Notes: a model not told the origin generated them from the letters alone. A stretch of 35,881 bases of DNA from a virus (IMGVR_UViG_2541047915_000013), one strand, 5' to 3'; counted from the stretch's first letter, positions 7,066 to 35,253 are shown. A program made the numbers and translations.

Positions 7066-7119
7066 TTTGTTGTCCTGTAAATTGGGTTCTGGCGCGGAAT
7101 CCCGCGCCGTTCAGATACA

Positions 7120-7635
7120 TCAGAGGCCGAGGGCGTTGCGGTGCGCTTCCATCAGGTCCACACCGTCCACAATTTCCACCATGTTGATAAGGTCCACTTC
7201 ATAGAGCACCTCACCATTGATGGTCAGCTTCGCGTAGCTGTTGGTACTGGTCACTTTGGTGGTGTTGCTTTCGCCCGTCTTCCACTCGCCGGAATCTACT
7301 TCTTTGTGACGTCCACGCACGACAAGCTCCACGGCCTGCACTTCCCCGGTATCGTCACGCTGGATAGAGCCGGTAAAGCGCAGCTGGATGCCATCCACCG
7401 TGGATTTGCCCATCTGCTTAAACAGCAGCAGTTCAGTACCACCAATGGAAAATTCTGTATCCAGTGCACTGTCATCCAGTCCCAGATCCACATCCACCGC
7501 CCCCGGCATACCGCCGCCGCGATACTTCTCATATTTGCGGGTGAATTTCGGCAGCGTCAGCGACTCAACGATCCCCTGCCAGTTGTTCCCGTCGTTAAAC
7601 AAGTTCAGATGTTTTAATTTGCGTGGTAAAGCCAT
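7120..7635 (-). CDS. FII: Tail tube protein FII
   Basis: 171 aa, P2 gpFII-like. Confidence 0.9.
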   Translation of the reverse strand: MALPRKLKHLNLFNDGNNWQGIVESLTLPKFTRKYEKYRGGGMPGAVDVDLGLDDSALDTEFSIGGTELLLFKQMGKSTVDGIQLRFTGSIQRDDTGEVQAVELVVRGRHKEVDSGEWKTGESNTTKVTSTNSYAKLTINGEVLYEVDLINMVEIVDGVDLMEAHRNALGL

Positions 7636-7644
7636 GTTGTCCCC

Positions 7645-8817
7645 TTACGCGCTGACCTGGCTGGCGAAATTCACCAGGTACTGATCGGTGATGCGCTGGC
7701 GCAGCATCAGATTTTCAAGTGGCGGCACTGGCGTGTAGTCGTAGTCGATGGTGAGTTTTCCGGCTTTAAGCGTGTCTTTGTCGTTCACCGACTCGTCCAG
7801 CCAGCAATCACCACCAATGAGATAGCCCTGACTGACCAGGTTGCGCATTTTGGCGCGGATACCTTCGATAATGTCGCGGGCCAGCGACGGGTTAAGCGGT
7901 TTATCCACCGCCCACATGTGTGCTTCTGCCATCGTGTCCATCAGCACCTGCGCCGTGCGGGTGTAGTTTTCGAAGGCAAAGAGCGGGTCATCACTCAGGC
8001 AGCGGGAACCCCAGAAGCGGAAACCGTCTTTACGCACAAGCGTGGTGACATCGTTCTGGTTCAGCAGACCTGCATCGGTTGCCGGGTCCTGCAGATCCCA
8101 GAACACATCTGCAGAAATTCCGGTGACACCGTTCACGCCCACGTTGGACAGGCTTTTGTGCCACCCGGTCTGCTCATCAATTTTGGCACGCAGACCAAGC
8201 GCACGGGCGGTGGCATATGCCATTGCTTCGGCGTTCAGCACCGTGTCCCAGCCAGTAAAGTCAGGCCAGATCAGCATCCCTTCGCGCTGGCTGAAGTTTT
8301 CACGGTAAGTGATCGCCTCCTGTACCGTCTTGCAGCCATACGCTGACAGGTAGGCAAACCCACGCAGGCTTTGCGCCACACTCAGCAACTCAGTAGCAAC
8401 GGCTTTGTTATCGTGACCTGGCACGCCGAGAATGCGCGGTTTAACGCCGAGCTGTGACTGGGCAGATAACAGGGCTTTCATGCCTGTTTTTTTACCTTCA
8501 GCGGTCACTGCTCCGATGATATTGGTCGTGGTTTCGTCTTCCGTTTCACCCTGCGGCACACGCACAACAACGGTCACGGGTTTTGCCTGGTCAGCGATGG
8601 CGTCCAGCGAACGGGCCAGCGTTCCGGACTCACCCGCTTTACCGCTGGCAGTCAGCACATCAGTGATCAGCACGGGTTTATTAAGAGGAAACATTTTTGC
8701 ATCGGCATCATCGCCCGTGCAGACCATACCCACGATGGCGGTGCTCACCGTGGTAATGGATCGGGTGCCTTCGTTGACTTCAACAACGCGCACCCCGTGG
8801 TGGTAATCCTGAGCCAT
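7645..8817 (-). CDS. FI: Contractile tail sheath protein FI
   Basis: 390 aa, P2 gpFI-like. Confidence 0.9.
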
Positions 8818-22459: not shown

Positions 22460-23890
22460 TCATCTTGAAAGTATCACCCGTTCAAACAATGGCATTAATT
22501 GAGAATAAACATTATCATAATGTTCATCATTTAAAAGATGATATTTATTTTCAAGTTTGATGCTATTAAAACCATCCATGAAACTCTCATAACCAACAGT
22601 GCCAATAATAATCTGATTTGTAAGGGAAAACCCATCCAAGCATAGTTTTATAAGCTTATGCGTATGCTCTGGATCCAAATCTTGTTGCTTTGGAGAGTCT
22701 ATTACTATAGGCATATTCTCAACTGAAGAGTTGCTTTTCATAACACTAAGTAGCGCGTAGTGAAATGCAAATATACCTCGAGGACCTCGACTACCAGTCT
22801 TACCCTTAGTAATATTATTATAACTACTAAGGCCACCTACCTTTGTATTTTCGACACCAAGCTCTTTAAGAGCTTTAGCGAAATACTCTTTGAAACAGTC
22901 ATTTATTTTAACAGTTCTTTTCTTATCATTGTATACTTCTAATTCTTCTTGTAATTCTGTCAACTCGCCTTCTTTTCGACCAATCTCAACGAATAACTCA
23001 TCTAACTGTGAAACAAAAGTAGATTCAATTTCATGGTATGCAGCAGATTTAATAACATCATGAAGCGTTATTTCCGATTGAGTTTCTAAAATCAGCGCCT
23101 GCAACGCCTCTGAAGCAGCCCTTGACTCTTCTAGCTTTTGATTCAATTTAGGAATATTTTCCTCAATCTTGCTTTTCTCATCTGCAAGAACAGCAATGTT
23201 TTTGAGCATTTCATCTCTATGGTTTATATAATTATATTCATTTACTGAATAAGCAACATTATCATCTCGAAAATTCGAAATCTCAAATTCATTATCAATA
23301 ATCGCAGTTATCTCTTTGAGTTCACTCTCAAGGAAATTCTTCCTAGAATATAACCTCAAAAGATTCAATCTATATTCTGTCTGAACTAAATTCAAATTAG
23401 AATATTCATTTAATATACGTTCTAACTTTGATTTATAAAAATCCAAATCAACATCAAATAAAACCACACCAAAAGATTCATCAATCTTACTTTTGCTTCT
23501 TTTTAGAACCTTAACAAAACCATCTAACTCTGAAATTTTAACTTTAACTTCTTTGATTTTCCCTTGAACTGTGTAATATTCCTTTGGCTTAATTCCAGAG
23601 TGATAGTAAAGAATGTTTTTTTGCCATTCTGAGTACATACTCATGTTTTCGAAAGAATTTATCACCGCTTTCCATCCTTCATCCTGATCAATAAAGAATG
23701 GGGCAAACAAACAAGCAGGGTTTGCCTGAGTCGTAGCACCCGTATATTTATTATGTAATTCCAGTTTAAAACCAAATATATTTGAAACACGAGATGCTAA
23801 TGACGAAATCGTGTTATACACGACTAGATCATCATTCTTCAAATCAAAGACACCAATAATCTTTTTATAACGCAAAAAAAATAAAATCAC
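22460..23890 (-). CDS. SMC/ABC-type ATPase, C-terminal part (LmuB/DUF3732-like), separated from its P-loop by a frameshift
   Basis: Long coiled-coil region, then PIVIDSP (Walker-B-like) and DPEH (H-loop-like); no Walker A in this ORF; about 30% GC. Confidence 0.6.
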   Translation of the reverse strand: MILFFLRYKKIIGVFDLKNDDLVVYNTISSLASRVSNIFGFKLELHNKYTGATTQANPACLFAPFFIDQDEGWKAVINSFENMSMYSEWQKNILYYHSGIKPKEYYTVQGKIKEVKVKISELDGFVKVLKRSKSKIDESFGVVLFDVDLDFYKSKLERILNEYSNLNLVQTEYRLNLLRLYSRKNFLESELKEITAIIDNEFEISNFRDDNVAYSVNEYNYINHRDEMLKNIAVLADEKSKIEENIPKLNQKLEESRAASEALQALILETQSEITLHDVIKSAAYHEIESTFVSQLDELFVEIGRKEGELTELQEELEVYNDKKRTVKINDCFKEYFAKALKELGVENTKVGGLSSYNNITKGKTGSRGPRGIFAFHYALLSVMKSNSSVENMPIVIDSPKQQDLDPEHTHKLIKLCLDGFSLTNQIIIGTVGYESFMDGFNSIKLENKYHLLNDEHYDNVYSQLMPLFERVILSR

Positions 23891-24134
23891 TTTCCCCGTT
23901 ATTAATTTCCACCAGTGTAACTATATCATCTGATTTCCAAGCATCATCAAGCCTTAAATCTCCACCTAATGTGTAATAAAGACTTTTAATCAGGCTTGAT
24001 TTACCAACATCATTTGTACCATATATGAAGTTAACCCCTTCTGAAAACTCATAAGAAAAAGCTTTTCTGTCTCTTAATGAGAGTATTTTTATATTTTTAA
24101 ATTTAACGTTATTCTTCATAAGAAACATCCTCAA
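23865..24134 (-). CDS. SMC/ABC-type ATPase, N-terminal P-loop fragment
   Basis: Walker A GTNDVGKSSL; frame ends inside a T8 tract where the downstream ORF continues in the +1 frame. Confidence 0.6.
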   Translation of the reverse strand: MRMFLMKNNVKFKNIKILSLRDRKAFSYEFSEGVNFIYGTNDVGKSSLIKSLYYTLGGDLRLDDAWKSDDIVTLVEINNGESDFIFFAL

Positions 24135-25188
24135 AAGTCAACTTTATAATTGCATATATAGCAATCATAAATTTCTCTTCTTGATTTAATAAAGAGAAAT
24201 CCCCGTCCCCCGCTGCAATTGTTTTTTCGAGTGTAAAGAAGAGGTCTCGAACAGGTATCTCACGATAATGCTCTATACTCTTTAGAGCCGATTGAAATTC
24301 CAGAAAATAAAGATAGTATATTGAATTGACATTGAGCACTTTTATTGATATGCGTGTAAAAACTGATTGTAATTTAATCCCCTCATAAGGATCTGAGAAA
24401 GTACCAAGCAACATACAAACCTGTTCCCATTTTGGCGTTATTTTTATGCTTGCAATGAGTCCAGATAATAAATCAGTTACAAATTCTGAAGATATACCTT
24501 TCTTTAGTACTAAATCTTCAAAAGTTTTGATATCACTAGAAGCAACACTAACCTTCTCATTACACTTATTGATTAATAATTTAGTGAATGCTGTTGAATT
24601 AATACCATGATCATCCCCAAAGTAAGAATTCAAAAAAACTGCAACTTTCCCGTATAAATGTGAGTTAGGATCTAACAAACTAAGATCAGATGTTTTAAAT
24701 TTTATTTTATCAAGAGGAACTTCTTTTTTAGTATTTAGCTGCTCTTGAACCTTACTAATTATAATTTCCTTATGCTCATTATTAAGATCACTACCTTTTT
24801 CGTTATTATCATTTAAGAAATCGAATCCAGCATTCGATAACAGAACCATATAAATTTCGTGACCAACGAATTGATAGAAATGGTCATATAGTTTTGCAAC
24901 AAATGATTTAGGTTTAGCTTTTGTTGCGTTCACTATTGCTGCGAGTGTCCATTTACCATCTTTTTTTGTTTTAACTTGGATAAACTCAGCACTAGTCGGA
25001 GAAACAGATGAATTCAATACAAGAATATCGTCATGATATTCAAATAGAAATAAATATTTCTCCTTTTCTTTTTGTTTCTCAAGTAAATAATTTATCCCCC
25101 AAGAGGCTTGATATGAAAAGCCTCTCAACGCGTTTTCACCGCCCCGTTCTGCTTGATTTACTGTAATTAACGCATCTGATAACGCCAC
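24109..25188 (-). CDS. PD-(D/E)xK nuclease-like protein of the Cap4/DUF4297 type (LmuA-like)
   Basis: N-terminal GGENALRGFSYQ ... YHDDILVL ... EFIQVK motifs; GTG start with AGGGA ribosome-binding site; about 30% GC. Confidence 0.55.
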   Translation of the reverse strand: MALSDALITVNQAERGGENALRGFSYQASWGINYLLEKQKEKEKYLFLFEYHDDILVLNSSVSPTSAEFIQVKTKKDGKWTLAAIVNATKAKPKSFVAKLYDHFYQFVGHEIYMVLLSNAGFDFLNDNNEKGSDLNNEHKEIIISKVQEQLNTKKEVPLDKIKFKTSDLSLLDPNSHLYGKVAVFLNSYFGDDHGINSTAFTKLLINKCNEKVSVASSDIKTFEDLVLKKGISSEFVTDLLSGLIASIKITPKWEQVCMLLGTFSDPYEGIKLQSVFTRISIKVLNVNSIYYLYFLEFQSALKSIEHYREIPVRDLFFTLEKTIAAGDGDFSLLNQEEKFMIAIYAIIKLTFEDVSYEE

Positions 25189-25273
25189 TCTATATATCCC
25201 TATTGTACTGCTTTTTTTGATACAAATTACCTTAGCTTCACCATCAAGTCCACAGATTCATGGCTAAGCGCGC

Positions 25274-25293
25274 GCTCGTATCCCCGCCACGCC
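25274..25293 (-). other. cos-like site (putative cohesive-end sequence)
   Basis: Minus-strand GGCGTGGCGGGGATACGAGC; the first 13 nt match the P2/186 cohesive-end sequence as I recall it. Confidence 0.4.
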
Positions 25294-25337
25294 TGCCCGC
25301 TTTATGTAGTGGTTTTCATGCACCTGCATGATCTACG

Positions 25338-25362
25338 CAAAAGCCCGCCAGTTCTGGCGGGC
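25338..25362 (-). terminator. Rho-independent terminator after the dinI-like operon
   Basis: GCCCGCCAG-aac-CTGGCGGGC hairpin followed by TTTTG on the minus strand. Confidence 0.55.
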
Positions 25363-25497
25363 CTTAGCAAAAACGATCCTCAAACGATCATGCGATCTCA
25401 TGCGGCATAGACATGCACTACAGAGCTAACGCCTCGCAAGGGCTCGTTGTTCAACCTTGCTGACGCCAGAAGCAAGTTCAGACGCCAGCAACGTTTC

Positions 25498-25731
25498 TTA
25501 ATGCAGCCAGCTGTCGTCTTCCCACACCTTCTGCATAATTTTCATCACTTGTTTTCTTTCTTCGTCCTGTTGCAGTCCGGTCAGTTCCACACCGTTAGAG
25601 CTACCTTTGCGGATACGAATTACCGTTTTGGGATACAGGGAGCGCAGATTGCGGTAAAGCTCGGATTCAAGGGCGTCCATGGTAGACTGGCTAATCTTCT
25701 GCTCTTTATCGATCATTATTTCAATGCGCAT
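25498..25731 (-). CDS. DinI-family protein (DNA-damage-inducible protein I-like)
   Basis: MRIEIMIDKEQ...LESELYRNLRSLYP...VWEDDSWLH resembles DinI; start set at the internal ATG at 25731; the ORF is open to 25803. Confidence 0.7.
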   Translation of the reverse strand: MRIEIMIDKEQKISQSTMDALESELYRNLRSLYPKTVIRIRKGSSNGVELTGLQQDEERKQVMKIMQKVWEDDSWLH

Positions 25732-25741
25732 AAAAGTCACC

Positions 25742-25930
25742 TCAGCTGATGACATCCATTGAGCGGTTGTATTCGTGGGTTCTGATTTTTGCCATGAGTT
25801 CATCAGTCAATTCAGAAACCCACTGCAGAGCCAGCCCCTTATCTTCATCACTACACTCACTAGCCGCTACAAGCTTAAGAAAAAAATCAATGCGCTGGAG
25901 CTTCAAAGACTCCAAAAAATAGTCCTGCAT
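25742..25930 (-). CDS. Hypothetical protein, first gene of the LexA-box operon
   Basis: ATG at 25930 preceded by AGGAGG; LexA box about 45 bp upstream. Confidence 0.5.
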   Translation of the reverse strand: MQDYFLESLKLQRIDFFLKLVAASECSDEDKGLALQWVSELTDELMAKIRTHEYNRSMDVIS

Positions 25931-25971
25931 CTTTCCTCCTATGACACCACACGCAATACTGTATGTATAAT

Positions 25972-25991
25972 CACTGTTTATATTTACAGTA
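25972..25991. promoter_or_regulatory. LexA (SOS) box
   Basis: CACTGTTTATATTTACAGTA fits CTGT-N8-ACAG. Confidence 0.65.
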
Positions 25992-26083
25992 TATAATAAT
26001 CTTACTGATGTAAAACGTTTTTTTACGTTCATCAGCCTGATATGCCTGGTATTATTAAGAGCACGAATTGTTAACCCGCGTAA

Positions 26084-28498
26084 TTAATACAGGTTCCGCC
26101 ACTGATCATCTTCCTGCAAACGCTGGTTCCGATAGAAGATACGCAGGCCTGCTCCTGACGGAATACTGCCTCCGCGAAGGAGTAAATCGACCTCTTTCTC
26201 GCTGCCATCAAATCCTCTGGACTTCAGCTCATACACGAGCTGCAGTCGCTGATGGTCTGTAATTCGCTGTTTGTAGTCTTTACGCCGTTTCGGTTTCACC
26301 TGGCGTAACCTTGCAGCCAGTTCCCGGCGCTCTTTTTTGCTCATACTGTGCAGGTAATCGTGCAACTCCTTGTCATTCATACAGGTAATATCCGTTCTGG
26401 AGTCCCCATCAGCTGATTTGTCTTTCCCTTGTTGGTTCAAATTTTCAGCAAGGGGACAGTTATTGCCACGAGTCCAAGGGGCGCAAGCGCCCTGGTCGGC
26501 TGCCGCCTCCTGAACGTCAACGGCCTTACGAACTATTTTCCACTTCACTGCATGAGTGCAGATCTTGCCCTCTGCAATGGGTGACCAGATGCCATAAATA
26601 CGAATGCCGTGATCGCCATAGGCGGTCGGCTCTTCGTTGATTTCATAAGCGGTTCTGATCAGGTGATATTTGCGGGGAACCAGTACGCCGCCCTGCTTCA
26701 TGATGTAGGTGGCAAAACAACCAGCATCAGCAGCAGCCAGGATTGCATCAAGGCGCGGGTTATCCAGTACCGGCGCACCTGCTTTTTTGTCCCCCTGTTG
26801 CCTTGCCGCCTGACCAGCCAGCAATCGCAGTTCACGGTAAGCCTGACGCCCCGGAATGCCAAAGAAGCGGAATTGCTGAACACGATGCAGAGACGCCCAG
26901 GCATTAACGTATTCAGCGTTATCACGCAGGGATTTACCCGTTTCCTTGCTGATCTCGCCAGCCAGACCACGCCCGTCAATGTTCTTACTAATGTATTTCG
27001 CGATGTAGCTTGTCGGCGTTCCTTTGCGCGGGTTAATCAACTCAGACTTAAAGCGCGGCCCTGTGTTATTGCCCAGCTCCTCGCGGTCTTCACGGATGGC
27101 AAACTTACGCAGTAATGCAGTGATGGCGCGGCGGTCTTTTTTGCGCATAAAACACAACAGGTGCCAGTGAACTGTACCGTCATGATGCGGCTCAGCCACC
27201 CGCACGCCATACCACCGCAATCCGGCTTTGTGCATCGCCTTACGAAATGCAGCAAACATGCCGACCAGATAATCACTGCTTTGTCTTACCGTCGCATTTG
27301 TCCAGGTTGGGTTGGGCCTGCCGTTATTTAGCGTGGAATGGAAACGTGACGGACAGGTGATGGTGTAGAAAACGGCGCAGTCACCGCGCATTTCCGCGAT
27401 AAGCTCCAGACCTTTAACACAGGCCATCATCTCATTGCGGCGATGCGCAGGGTTGCTGCTGCTGGCGTTTACCACATCTTCCATATCCAGCGTGTCGCCG
27501 TCTTCGTTCACCAGTTCATGAGAACGAAAAAACTCCAGCGACTTACGGCGCTGCTCACGTTTATGCATCACGGCTTCATAGCTGACATAGGGGGATGCTT
27601 TTTTGCTGACCAGGCAGACAGCACGCAACTGCTCTTCCCGCCATTCGCAACGCATCTTCCATAATTTCCGATACCACCAGTCGGCACACAACATACGCGC
27701 CAGCGAACCCGGAATGAGTTCATAGGGCACGGGTTTACGGCGGTTTCTTTTCCGACGGAGTTGCTCAAACGCAGGCGGAATAACATCCAGACGCAGGGTT
27801 TCCGCTGCCACCTTTTCCCATGTTTTGCGGATTTCTTCTGGCTTAACGTCATCGGTGGCATACAAATCGCCACAAGCTGCATCAAGACACATGCTCATAT
27901 GCGCAGCAACAAGGGTGGACAGGCGTTTCACCTGATCCTGACTCATTTCAGGCAGGATCAGCAGGCCGTCCAGCCCTTCATGGCTTGCCATAAAGCGAAA
28001 AGAAGTGGATAGCTGACTCTCGCGTACATGCTCCAGTCGTTCCAGACATGGCTTAATCGTCTCACGCAAATAGCGGGAATAAGCCTTTGGCCTGCCCAGG
28101 CTGCTGAAGTATTCAATACGTTGCATCAGCGGCTTGCTGATATGGGAAGGCTGGGCGTTGACGTCCGCCAGAATGACCATGTCTGGATTAAAACGCTGCT
28201 GCTCATGCGCCAGCTTTGCCCGGCTAATGAGCTTATCCTGCTCCATTTCGCGCTGGACAGGATCACGGGATTCATTAAAGAAATAACGCTCCCAGACCTG
28301 ATCACTCAGTGCCTCACGGCGCAGTTGTTCCTGCTCGTTATCGGCAGCGTACAGAGTGATCAGGTTTGAAAGCGCAGAAACCGGCGCAACTTCCGCCGGG
28401 TCCAGATAAGGGTTAATAGCCTTTTTCGGGCTGTTCCATGAGAATGCTGCGGCGGCCTCGTTAAAGCCGCTGCAGTTGTTCATATCAGCATGGCTCAT
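26084..28498 (-). CDS. A: Replication initiation endonuclease A (rolling-circle initiator)
   Basis: 804 aa; HxH motif (VHWHLL) and YIAKYISK tyrosine motif; gpA-like. Confidence 0.9.
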
Positions 28499-31293: not shown

Positions 31294-31926
31294 ATGATAC
31301 AGGTAAAGGTTGGAGAGAATACAGGGGGAAGAGAGGCTATCCATAGACTAATGGCAGCCTATGATTTCAAGTCCAGACAGCAACTTTGCGATCACTTAGG
31401 CGCATCAAAAAGTACCATGGCAAACAGATACTTAAGAGATAGTTTTCCTGCAGAGTGGGTGATTCAGTGCGCCTTGGAAACAGGAGTTTCTTTACTGTGG
31501 CTAACCACCGGACAGGGGGAGCCAGGTCCAAACATTGAACCTAAAAAAAATATCAATTCCGTGAACTCCAGCAAGGTTGTACCTCTTTCTGAACTAGTAT
31601 CTCCTGAAATTGACAAGGCGACTCTCAACGGTGGTTTATTGGTCGATGCTGGAAAAGCAATCATTGATAGCAGCATACTCCCCTCAGACTCAAGCAACCT
31701 ACTGCTGGTGACTACTTCTGGTGATTCTTATTTAATAGATCGCAACCAAACACCACCAGTAAATGGTATGTGGTTAGTCGATATTGACGGGATAAAAAGC
31801 ATTGTTAAATTGACTCGACTTCCGGGAAACAAATTAGTAGTGCATCAGGATGATTCATCGTTTGAGTGTGGCCTAGATGACATTGAGGTAGTAGGCCGCG
31901 CACTGAAAATCATTAAGAGCCTTTGA
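31294..31926 (+). CDS. cI: CI-like immunity repressor
   Basis: 210-aa protein with N-terminal helix-turn-helix-like region; co-oriented with int. Confidence 0.7.
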   Translation: MIQVKVGENTGGREAIHRLMAAYDFKSRQQLCDHLGASKSTMANRYLRDSFPAEWVIQCALETGVSLLWLTTGQGEPGPNIEPKKNINSVNSSKVVPLSELVSPEIDKATLNGGLLVDAGKAIIDSSILPSDSSNLLLVTTSGDSYLIDRNQTPPVNGMWLVDIDGIKSIVKLTRLPGNKLVVHQDDSSFECGLDDIEVVGRALKIIKSL

Positions 31927-31927
31927 T

Positions 31928-32944
31928 ATGACCATCAGAAAACAGCCGAACGGAAAATGGTTGTGTGAGTGCTATCCCAATGGACGCAATGGTAAGCGCG
32001 TGCGTAAGCAATTTGCTACGAAAGGCGAAGCCATTGCTTTTGAAAGCTTCACAATGGAAGAAGTGAATAAAAAACCGTGGTTGGGTGAAAAGGATGATCG
32101 GCGACGCCTATCAGAATTAATTGAGCTTTGGTATTCCCTGTATGGTCAGACACTCGCAGACCCCAAGCGCCTCATGGCGAAACTTAGAATTATCTGTAAT
32201 GGTCTAGGCGACCCCATCGCCTCAGAACTGACAGCCGGTGACTTTACGAAATACCGCGAAGCACGGTTAAAAGGTGACGTTCGTAACGAAGACGGCACAC
32301 TAATGTCGCCAGTAAAACCACGCACGGTGAATCTTGAGCAACGTAACCTATCATCGGTTTTCGGCACATTGAAAAAACTAGGCCACTGGTCAGCACCAAA
32401 TCCTCTCGCCGGGCTGCCAACATTTAAAATCGCTGAGGGGGAACTGGCGTTCCTGACCTCGGAAGAAATTAAACGTCTGCTAGATGCCTGCGCTGATTCT
32501 CAAAACCCCAGTCTGCTTTTGATTGCAAAAATATGCCTGGCCACCGGCGCACGCTGGAGTGAAGCTGAAAACCTGCAGGGCCATCAGTTATCTAAATACC
32601 GCATCACTTATACCAAGACGAAGGGTAAGAAAAACCGCACCGTGCCGATATCTCAAGATCTGTATGACGAACTCCCCAAGAACAGAGGGAAGCTATTCAC
32701 CCCGTGCAGAAAAGCCTTTGAACGAGCAGTAAAGCGAGCTGGCATCGAGCTGCCAGAGGGCCAATGCACTCACGTGCTACGTCATACATTCGCCAGCCAT
32801 TTTATGATGAATGGCGGAAACATACTGGTGCTGCGCGATATTCTGGGCCATGCCGATATAAAAATGACGATGATTTACGCCCACTTTTCGCCCGATCACC
32901 TTGAAGATGCGGTAACTAAAAACCCTTTATGCAACTTAAGATAG
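31928..32944 (+). CDS. int: Tyrosine integrase (P2/186 family)
   Basis: 338 aa; ...ATGARWSEA..., ...HVLRHTFASHFMMNGG... and ...MIYAHF motifs typical of P2-type integrases. Confidence 0.9.
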   Translation: MTIRKQPNGKWLCECYPNGRNGKRVRKQFATKGEAIAFESFTMEEVNKKPWLGEKDDRRRLSELIELWYSLYGQTLADPKRLMAKLRIICNGLGDPIASELTAGDFTKYREARLKGDVRNEDGTLMSPVKPRTVNLEQRNLSSVFGTLKKLGHWSAPNPLAGLPTFKIAEGELAFLTSEEIKRLLDACADSQNPSLLLIAKICLATGARWSEAENLQGHQLSKYRITYTKTKGKKNRTVPISQDLYDELPKNRGKLFTPCRKAFERAVKRAGIELPEGQCTHVLRHTFASHFMMNGGNILVLRDILGHADIKMTMIYAHFSPDHLEDAVTKNPLCNLR

Positions 32945-33324: not shown

Positions 33325-35058
33325 CTACTCAAGGAGATATTCTAACTCATCTTTTATCGGGATAATTTGCTCATAAAGTCGGTGATATGACTTCCCAATT
33401 GCGCCTCTAAATTGTATTAACTTTGGTGGCTTACTACCTATATTAATAATATGGTCTTGAGCTATACCTGGGTAGGGATCAATAAATACAATTTCAGATA
33501 TACCTAACTGATAAGCTTTTTTCGCACACAACTCACAGGGACTGGCAGTTGTATACAACTTCCCCCCCAGAACGCCAATACCACCATATTTTGCAAGTTG
33601 CAAAAATGCGTTTTCCTCAGCATGTAATGCACGTGTATGAACTTGATTACCTTTTTTCTCTTTATCAAGATCATTATGTATATCTTTAAAACAATAAGAT
33701 AAGTTCCTGCCTCTATAAATATCACCAGTTTTATCTATCGCCCTAAAATTTAAGAGTTTCTCATTAGCTTTAATTCTGAAAGAACTATTATTTCTCTCAT
33801 AATGACTGTACGTTTTTTCATCAAAATCGTTCATTAGGCCATCTAGAGATCTCATAGAGCAAGGAATCTGACCGTTGGCAACATCATTCCAACCAACTGA
33901 TTTTATTGAATTATCACCATCAGTTACTACAGCTCCCACCTGTCTAGATATACAGCCAGAGTTTAATTTTACCGTATACGCAACTTGCATAACCCTTTCC
34001 ATTGCAGTAGGTGTTATCAGACCAGGATGCTTCATCAGTGCGATGTACCACGCTAATTGTGCTTTTAAAATATTGTCATTATCAAATTCATTTTTTGGGT
34101 TAAAAATGTGTATATCTGATAGTTCAATACATTTAGTTACATTTGGATTGGTGAGATGTTTGTAAGAGTTATCACCTTTACCTGACTCTACAGAATCTAT
34201 TTCCTCTATCTGCTTTTCTGAAAACTTATGTAGTTTCCGCAAATAGTTTGTTCGATGTTCATCCGGGGCATTTATTGACATTAAATGAAATGCAGAATAT
34301 CTATCCTTAAAAAATTTTGCCTCATATGGATTTCTAATAGCATCTATGACAATTAATGCGTTATCTCTTTTGCTTTTTCTTATTAATTTAATAACCCTAT
34401 TAATAGTTTCCGGCAAATGAAAAACAGATTTAGGCATAAACTCTTTATCTTCAAAATCGACTTCAATACGCCCACGACGTCTAATTGACTTACCTGCTAA
34501 CTGATAGGCTGAAACATATAAATTTGAGTTTATCTCATTTAGTTCAGCTTTGAATTCTTTAGTAAATTTTCTAACTAACTTCAAAATTGATATAAATTTA
34601 TTAATCGTTTTTTCATCAAGCTTCAATTCACTATTATGATCAAGCAAATTCTCAATTACATTTTTAAATCTTGTCAAAATGAGATTATCTGAGAATACAC
34701 CAAAAGTTAATACAATATCTAAATGCTCTTTACTGATAGATTTATTAGATGATAGAATGAATTCAGAAGCTTCCTCAGCTGTTAACATCAGAAGATACGC
34801 TGAGATTAGGTCACTCACCTTAATTGAGTAAAAATTTTCCCAGTGATTTTCTGCGAATTTTTTAACTATATTATAACGATGGACATCCAATCCCTTGTAA
34901 AACCCCTGTAATTTACTTACATCAGGGAAGACTGTTTTTTCGTTTTCAAGAATATTAGCTGTTGTTGTGCAACCAGAACCAGTTCGACCTGTCAAACCGA
35001 CTAAAATAAACTGCCCATTTTCAAGGAAAAGCTCACTAACGAATTTTTTTTCTTTCAT
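33325..35058 (-). CDS. P-loop kinase-like / cytidine deaminase fusion protein (AvcD/dCTP-deaminase-like accessory gene)
   Basis: N-terminal P-loop GRTGSGCTT; C-terminal deaminase zinc motifs HAEENA and SPCELC; ATG at 35058; about 30% GC. Confidence 0.7.
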   Translation of the reverse strand: MKEKKFVSELFLENGQFILVGLTGRTGSGCTTTANILENEKTVFPDVSKLQGFYKGLDVHRYNIVKKFAENHWENFYSIKVSDLISAYLLMLTAEEASEFILSSNKSISKEHLDIVLTFGVFSDNLILTRFKNVIENLLDHNSELKLDEKTINKFISILKLVRKFTKEFKAELNEINSNLYVSAYQLAGKSIRRRGRIEVDFEDKEFMPKSVFHLPETINRVIKLIRKSKRDNALIVIDAIRNPYEAKFFKDRYSAFHLMSINAPDEHRTNYLRKLHKFSEKQIEEIDSVESGKGDNSYKHLTNPNVTKCIELSDIHIFNPKNEFDNDNILKAQLAWYIALMKHPGLITPTAMERVMQVAYTVKLNSGCISRQVGAVVTDGDNSIKSVGWNDVANGQIPCSMRSLDGLMNDFDEKTYSHYERNNSSFRIKANEKLLNFRAIDKTGDIYRGRNLSYCFKDIHNDLDKEKKGNQVHTRALHAEENAFLQLAKYGGIGVLGGKLYTTASPCELCAKKAYQLGISEIVFIDPYPGIAQDHIINIGSKPPKLIQFRGAIGKSYHRLYEQIIPIKDELEYLLE

Positions 35059-35253
35059 CACGTCCCACTTATGAATGCAAGAACAATTAACATATTAATT
35101 GTAATTTATTAACTAATTTTATTCTAGATACTTGATGTAATGGCGGCACTTTGGCGGCAGAGCATTAAAAACGCGTAAGACGAGCAAATACAAAATAACA
35201 CTAACACATTGTTTTCAAACATAATCTACTGTTTTTACTATAATAAAAATGGT

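Follow-up and report, generated by a model that had tools for sequence, protein, structure and literature searches.

A Fels-2-like prophage probably carries at its right end a LexA-controlled SOS operon for a TumA-type antirepressor and a DinI-family modulator

Introduction

How does a prophage whose immunity repressor does not cleave itself respond to DNA damage, and which of its genes would carry the signal to the repressor? The 186-type repressor is inactivated by an antirepressor and not by self-cleavage, and in phage 186 the antirepressor Tum inhibits CI following SOS derepression of the p95 promoter (PMC7708051). The same question is raised by two small genes behind an SOS box in a 35,881-nt stretch of viral DNA (IMGVR_UViG_2541047915_000013), the whole of which was analysed and is hereafter called the window. 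The original prediction had described them as a LexA-box-controlled module ending in a dinI-like gene and possibly forming a Tum-type antirepressor unit, and had offered two genes or one shifted gene as alternatives for its layout. From the evidence below, the points directly established being sequence features, homologies, synteny and conservation, the region very probably serves a Fels-2-like prophage (Peduoviridae) as its LexA-controlled SOS operon, placed at the right end and encoding a TumA antirepressor and a DinI-family modulator (Table 1). The observation is real, but a split tum arrangement is already known, because tum has been described as split in two in both Fels-2 and PSP3 (PMC3121763).

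Table 1. Coordinates of the SOS operon features and of the presumed target repressor in the window
Feature	Position	Strand	Basis or remark
186-type CI immunity repressor, presumed TumA target	31294-31926	+	PF07022 + PF16452
-35 hexamer TTTACA, p95-like promoter	26009-26014	-	Inferred; matches TTGACA at 5/6
-10 hexamer TACTGT, left half of the LexA box	25986-25991	-	Inferred
Predicted LexA (SOS) box TACTGTAAATATAAACAGTG, minus-strand reading	25972-25991	palindromic	Consensus search and conservation
Degenerate second LexA-like site TACTGTATGTATAATCACTG, plus-strand reading	25957-25976		One half-site perfect, the other 2/4
Shine-Dalgarno AGGAGG of the 62-aa gene	25935-25940	-	4 nt before ATG
tumA-like gene, 62 aa, putative CI antirepressor	25742-25930	-	phrog_698, Fels-2 homology
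tumB / DinI-family gene, 77 aa	25498-25731	-	PF06183
Strong 3' UTR hairpin without U-tract	25453-25495	-	Folding
Candidate intrinsic terminator of the SOS operon, GGCCCGCCAGAACTGGCGGGC then TTTT	25339-25366	-	Minus-strand orientation only
Phage cos site GGCGTGGCGGGGATACGAG, module boundary	25275-25293	-	Match to 186 cos

Results

The window holds a complete prophage with a 186-type repressor

The window comprises a complete P2/186-like prophage that lies beside ssrA in E. coli and is collinear with Fels-2. It is flanked by smpB (1-483) and the tmRNA gene ssrA (698-1060, tag ANDENYALAA), and the host was assigned to E. coli and the insertion to a position by ssrA because the flank at 1-1060 is 100% identical to E. 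coli MINF_1D. The immunity region contains a 186-type CI, which combines a PF07022 helix-turn-helix with a PF16452 C-terminal domain and is 33% identical to 186 CI, as well as CII (PF06892) and the integrase (31928-32944); the protein at the Apl/Cox position is 100% identical to Fels-2 Apl. The collinear Fels-2 genome likewise encodes 186-type CI, Apl, CII and Int and has a nearly identical promoter region upstream of its own two-gene module, but its CI is only 58% identical to that of the window, with the divergence residing mainly in the linker and the C-terminal domain. The CIs of 813R9 and 4LV2017 share 44% and 40% identity, respectively, with the window CI, and the PSP3 CI has 286 aa.

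For the window CI, a Pfam domain scan reported no match to a peptidase S24 domain. One feature expected of a Tum- or TumA-bearing phage, namely a 186-type CI without detected self-cleavage, was thus found, and because the repressor has no detected self-cleavage domain, an antirepressor would be needed for its inactivation.

The 62-aa gene and the DinI gene are separate

The genes of the module are all encoded on the minus strand. The P2/186-type replication initiator, gene A (PF05840, E = 6e-128), ends at 26084 and is followed by the 62-aa gene (ORF62), which runs from ATG 25930 to a TGA stop at 25744-25742 and was found, as originally described, to be preceded by an AGGAGG site. After an intergenic gap of 10 nt (GGTGACTTTT) the DinI gene begins at ATG 25731 with its own ribosome-binding site GAGGTGA, and it is at precisely this ATG, with MRIEI, that the similarity to DinI, 186 Tum and PSP3 TumB sets in. 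The out-of-frame overlap over 25742-25803 that had been assigned to the two ORFs is an artefact of calling the longest ORF (101 aa, ATG 25803) and arises with that choice only.

Gene annotations of Fels-2, 813R9, Klebsiella phages and E. coli (PGAP) show the layout of 189 nt + 10 nt + 234 nt, and in Fels-2, as in the window, gene A is followed by the LexA box, the 62-aa gene, a gap of 10 nt and the DinI gene. In IMG/VR contigs with this type of ORF62, the two genes are separate in 80 of 80; 79 contigs share the 10-nt gap, and one has 9 nt. PSP3 also has its split tum after gene A with a LexA box upstream, and there tumA and tumB share one reading frame, with a stop codon plus 3 nt between them. 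In 186, both halves are fused in a 146-aa Tum, with internal starts leading to DinI-only products; on a broader scale, 79 of 80 186-type loci encode a fused Tum, and all 80 ORF62-type loci have the split form.

The fused protein of 186 and of those 79 loci, like the out-of-frame overlap of the longest-ORF calls, could be taken to mean that the locus is a single frameshift-broken tum gene, either a decaying pseudogene or a programmed-frameshift fusion. We regard this as extremely improbable: the stop, the 10-nt spacer with GAGGTGA and the ATG are maintained in 80/80 loci and in Fels-2, both proteins are conserved in many enterobacterial genera, the junction GTCATCAGCTGAGGTGACTTTTATG contains no evident slippery sequence, and PSP3 tumA and tumB are named as separate genes. 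Judged from the 80 separate loci and the MRIEI start, the choice that had been offered between two genes and one shifted gene falls to two genes.

A LexA box overlaps a p95-like promoter

The near-consensus SOS box that had been placed about 45 bp upstream of the 62-aa ORF was recovered 41 nt from its ATG as CACTGTTTATATTTACAGTA, with three mismatches (17/20) to the 20-nt LexA consensus TACTGTATATATATACAGTA and with both CTGT/ACAG cores intact. It is the sole site with at most three mismatches in the 35.9-kb window, and 0 of 100 shuffles reached that score. When only the looser core CTGT-N8-ACAG was demanded, two occurrences were counted in the window versus 0.44 expected; the second perfect one (33940-33955) is situated inside a 578-aa deaminase-domain ORF (33325-35061) and is probably due to chance. 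Of 80 ORF62-type IMG/VR loci, 75 retain an intact CTGT-N8-ACAG core at an unchanged offset, with differences confined to the spacer, and in 80 of 80 186-type loci a perfect core lies at a fixed distance.

The promoter of the window was positioned by analogy with the annotated 186 p95, the record of which gives a -35 TTCACA, 18 nt, a -10 TACTGT and a LexA site beginning at the -10. In the window, 17 nt separate TTTACA from TACTGT, and this -10 is identical in the two phages and inside the LexA box in both. A generic sigma-70 scan found no promoter, because the -10 matches the consensus at only 3/6 positions. The box thus displays at the sequence level the properties of a LexA operator, namely a palindrome with an AT-rich spacer placed over the core promoter; the window and 186 share a predicted LexA-repressed promoter between gene A and cos, which is the second feature expected of a Tum or TumA locus and was likewise found at the sequence level. 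The two differ in that the LexA box of 186 is 19 nt from the start codon versus 41 nt in the window.

A degenerate second LexA-like site overlaps the main box (Table 1), and in a MAFFT alignment the single LexA boxes of 186 and PSP3 fall opposite this site, not opposite the main box, which suggests a shift of the functional LexA box by 16 nt upstream in the Fels-2 lineage. Folding yielded no significant hairpin after gene A (~26000-26040, z = -1.5) and no significant structure of the 5' UTR.

The downstream gene encodes a TumB-type member of the DinI family

Membership of the downstream product in the DinI family, as originally predicted, was borne out by PF06183 (E = 3e-23, 82.4 bits versus a cutoff of 24.2, profile positions 1-63 of 63) and by a match to the DinI structure PDB 1ghh (E = 1.7e-6). 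The protein is 96% identical to the Fels-2 DinI protein and 75% identical to PSP3 TumB. Alignments with 186 Tum and E. coli DinI, which had been proposed as a check, gave 43% identity to Tum residues 71-145 (E = 1e-25) and 29-30% identity to DinI, respectively; the relation of Tum to DinI that had been stated originally hence proved right for the C-terminal half of Tum. E. coli DinI resembles the window protein in Pfam family, length, MRIE start, C-terminal W-E-(D/S) helix and LexA regulation, but differs in that the chromosomal protein shares so low an identity with it. Against the host-DinI equivalog NF007893 (NCBIfam), the window protein reached 45 bits, below the cutoff of 111, and was therefore classified as a phage TumB-type paralogue and not as chromosomal DinI.

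As a DinI-family protein, the product most likely acts as a modulator of RecA filaments and would thereby influence how strong the SOS signal is or how long it lasts. The 186 record draws the same division within one gene, stating that Tum 'inhibits CI DNA binding', while the DinI-only products 'modulate SOS induction'.

The upstream gene encodes a TumA-like antirepressor candidate

ORF62 matches phrog_698 (E = 6e-38) and is 97% identical to Fels-2 STM2728; in RefSeq and most phage records the gene is called 'hypothetical protein'. The name 'levan regulatory protein', carried by some of its homologues, was rejected as annotation noise without a supporting profile match. No Pfam, NCBIfam or PADLOC match was obtained for ORF62, BLASTP gave no alignment with 186 Tum, and ORF62 shares no more than 23-24% identity with 186 Tum or PSP3 TumA.

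Relatedness was detected by profile comparisons. Residues 1-71 of 186 Tum match phrog_698 (6e-6), phrog_8554 (3.5e-12) and phrog_1993 (1.6e-23), and ORF62 in turn matches phrog_8554 (2.6e-9), a bridging family, and phrog_1993 (1.6e-3), the family of PSP3 TumA. HMMs of our own were built from database homologues, every E-value from them being that of a single comparison (search space 1): the Tum N-terminal HMM scored ORF62 at 5.8e-7, on par with PSP3 TumA at 5.5e-7, the ORF62-family HMM scored 186 Tum at 4e-6, and the reciprocal alignments were in register over residues 6-44. An hhalign comparison of the two family alignments returned the same register with E = 0.0015 and a probability of only 17%, owing to the low diversity of the alignments (Neff 1.4), and the homology claim is therefore based on the HMMER and PHROG cross-hits. 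By these profile-level criteria the 62-aa protein is a homologue of Tum from 186, in its N-terminal half, and of PSP3 TumA, the latter having 60 aa, 24% identity and membership in phrog_1993 versus phrog_698 for the window protein. An AF2 model from a 35-sequence alignment predicted a two-helix hairpin (pLDDT 86); Foldseek of this model against the PDB retrieved generic helical hairpins only (best E = 1.4), and a PDB sequence search with the ORF62 family profile retrieved nothing.

The upstream 62-aa gene, not the dinI-like gene, is most likely the antirepressor by analogy with the split systems. Of the original reading, the LexA-controlled Tum-type unit stood, while the antirepressor role implied for the dinI-like gene did not, as it probably belongs to the 62-aa gene instead. 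The converse assignment, with the DinI-like protein as the antirepressor, alone or together with ORF62, and ORF62 as an accessory or unrelated protein, could invoke the DinI-like half within full-length 186 Tum and the DinI gene beside ORF62 in 80/80 loci. It appears very unlikely, however, given that the antirepressor of PSP3 is the upstream gene according to a personal communication cited second-hand in PMC3121763, that the 186 record gives the DinI-only Tum product a role in modulating SOS induction and not that of an antirepressor, and that induction of Gifsy prophages is unchanged by dinI deletions (PMC3121763). ESSI2_ev040 moreover carries after gene A a tumA-like gene (1121-1381, 47% identical) that is not followed by a DinI-like gene. 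With ORF62 as the probable antirepressor, the gene can be named a TumA-like antirepressor candidate in annotation. A literature search on tumA/tumB returned no relevant paper.

The Gifsy dinI-gfoA/gftA operons resemble the window in that a single SOS operon combines a LexA box with genes for a DinI homologue and for a small antirepressor, putative in the window; their repressor is uncleaved, and one antirepressor can act on several prophages (PMC3121763). They differ in that dinI comes first, the phages are lambdoid and the repressor is not of the 186 CI family.

A proposed route from DNA damage to prophage induction

In an undamaged cell, LexA would occupy the box overlapping the p95-type -10 and keep the operon off. 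Upon DNA damage, RecA would be activated and LexA would cleave itself, so that the operon could be transcribed as far as the candidate terminator just before cos. The 62-aa, two-helix TumA-like product would then bind the 186-type CI and prevent its binding to the operator, and with CI blocked the lytic promoter would fire and the prophage would be induced; the DinI-family product would tune RecA filaments and would not be the antirepressor. The module would in this way explain DNA-damage sensing by a prophage without a self-cleaving repressor. The p95-like layout, the 186-type CI and the Tum homology all support the proposal, already made originally, that it ties prophage induction to DNA damage.

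Expression data exist for Fels-2: in Salmonella TA100, which carries this prophage, the mutagen MX raised the expression of STM2727 5.5-, 11.1- and 14.8-fold, this gene is listed in a LexA-regulon table, and STM2726-2727-2728 was scored as a responding operon after MX in array data (PMC2225428). From the order of the locus tags, STM2727 would be the Fels-2 DinI-like gene.

A nearly invariant TumA candidate accompanies variable CI repressors

The 818-bp module matched 1281 of 5426 complete E. coli genomes (~24%), and in 828 of these the match covered no less than 80% of the module. The 62-aa protein is encoded in more than 590 IMG/VR stretches, with homologues in Salmonella, Klebsiella, Enterobacter, Citrobacter, Pectobacterium, Kosakonia and other genera. 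For a covariation analysis, 80 IMG/VR contigs with an ORF62 at least 98% identical to that of the window were sampled, and CI was found in 70. In these 70, CI identity to the window CI ranged from 38 to 100% (median 43%). Gene A identity stayed between 96 and 100%, and whole-protein covariation of ORF62 with CI was absent. A near-invariant ORF62 beside so variable a CI is unusual for a specific protein-protein inhibitor.

When the domains of CI were compared separately, the variability proved to be unevenly distributed. Across the 39 distinct CIs that occur with this TumA, the N-terminal domains have a mean pairwise identity of 75% (minimum 53%) and the C-terminal domains one of 43% (minimum 24%); in single-linkage clustering at 65% of 71 CIs (those of the 70 contigs and the window), all N-terminal domains fell into one cluster and the C-terminal domains into 15. 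Most of these ORF62 loci show exchanges of the neighbouring apl/cox and int genes as well. This pattern fits a TumA that would act on the CI DNA-binding domain and tolerate any C-terminal domain. Two Klebsiella phages, 4LV2017 and ST11-OXA48phi15.3, have longer CIs (~292-313 aa; 7108-8049 and 7504-8382, respectively) with a tandem duplicated N-terminal helix-turn-helix, yet the same 98%-identical TumA.

The near-invariance of ORF62 set against a CI so variable, above all in its C-terminal domain, may also be read as a sign that ORF62 is SOS-induced for some other damage-related role without acting on CI, the prophage being induced in another way, and the weakness of the ORF62-Tum homology (no BLASTP alignment, 17% by hhalign) would be in keeping with this. 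We nonetheless consider it unlikely, as ORF62 shares position, promoter and partner gene with tum and tumA, the ORF62/Tum profile matches are reciprocal and in register, a CI without a detected self-cleavage domain requires an antirepressor, and the CI N-terminal domain forms a single cluster in all loci with this TumA; a lexA-null mutation is, moreover, lethal owing to Fels-2, as stated in the title of Bunny 2002. On the antirepressor reading, the 62-aa protein would bind the window CI, and its target would be the N-terminal DNA-binding domain.

Fused-Tum (186-type) loci have a different class of CI N-terminal domain, 34-47% identical to that of the window, and the class difference is found just past the presumed recognition helix (LRDsFPADWVIQC versus TRGaISYDFAvHC in the 186-type); the association between TumA class and CI N-terminal class is confounded, because the two classes are two phage lineages. 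Four 186-type loci have divergent CI N-terminal domains. The segment RD-x-FPA-D/E-W-V-I-Q-C, around residues 48-59 of the window CI, is a candidate for the surface recognised by TumA.

The sole point that goes beyond the literature covered here, as it appears from these alignments, is that the antirepressor candidate is fixed while the CI C-terminal domain has been swapped repeatedly, and from this the CI N-terminal domain is predicted as the target, along with cross-talk between repressor alleles. Only tentatively, as a possibility we think somewhat doubtful, might the 62-aa TumA be a broad-spectrum antirepressor recognising the conserved N-terminal DNA-binding domain of CI. If true, a single TumA made in the SOS response could activate numerous Fels-2-like prophages with differing CI C-terminal oligomerisation domains, leading to cross-induction among co-resident P2-like prophages, which are present in about one quarter of E. 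coli genomes. Being encoded apart from DinI, the antirepressor function could then also be tuned independently of the DinI function.

The operon probably ends before cos and a Lamassu defence locus

The original prediction had placed a clean terminator after the dinI ORF; none adjoins the stop codon, and what was found instead is a GC-rich hairpin followed by UUUU ~130 nt downstream of the DinI gene. This candidate terminator has a 9-11 bp GC-rich stem but only four U after it, and it was missed by the terminator scan because that scan demands five T. Directly after the DinI stop, inside the 130-nt 3' UTR, there is another strong hairpin, which is present in E. coli and Klebsiella relatives and absent from Fels-2. 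Folding of the whole 181-nt 3' stretch gave z = -3.35, and an Rfam scan of 25100-26150, the 3' UTR hairpin included, produced no match.

The cos site follows the candidate terminator by ~45 nt. Over the first 13 of its 19 nt it agrees with the cos site GGCGTGGCGGGGAAAGCAT annotated for 186, and the upstream flank, at the right end of 186, also matches; homology with 813R9, which has a different cargo, stops just beyond cos. The downstream arrangement varies among the relatives: Fels-2 has an extra downstream gene, STM2726 (243 aa), and lacks the 130-nt 3' UTR hairpin region, and 186 has orf97 downstream, whereas in the window the candidate terminator leads directly to cos and then to a Lamassu cargo. 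Co-transcription of the Lamassu genes with the SOS operon was considered and rejected, because the candidate terminator and the cos site intervene.

The Lamassu anti-phage defence system occupies 22460-25188 on the minus strand, between cos and the portal gene Q, and consists of LmuA (24109-25188; PADLOC E = 4e-143; Pfam Cap4 nuclease) and LmuB (22460-23890; PADLOC E = 1e-208). Related phages carry other cargo at the same position, namely Hypoth_Ymh, an AIPR Abi protein, a TIR protein or a retron effector. LmuB is intact with 552 aa in E. coli VG888-46E9; in the window lmuB is broken at ~23881 by a 1-nt homopolymer difference (T8 versus T7 in VG888-46E9) and split into ORFs of 89 and 476 aa, which could reflect a pseudogene, phase variation or a sequencing error. 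Past the integrase, the 578-aa protein encoded on the minus strand at 33325-35061 has a cytidine/dCMP deaminase domain and matches the PADLOC dCTP-deaminase defence model (E = 1e-145).
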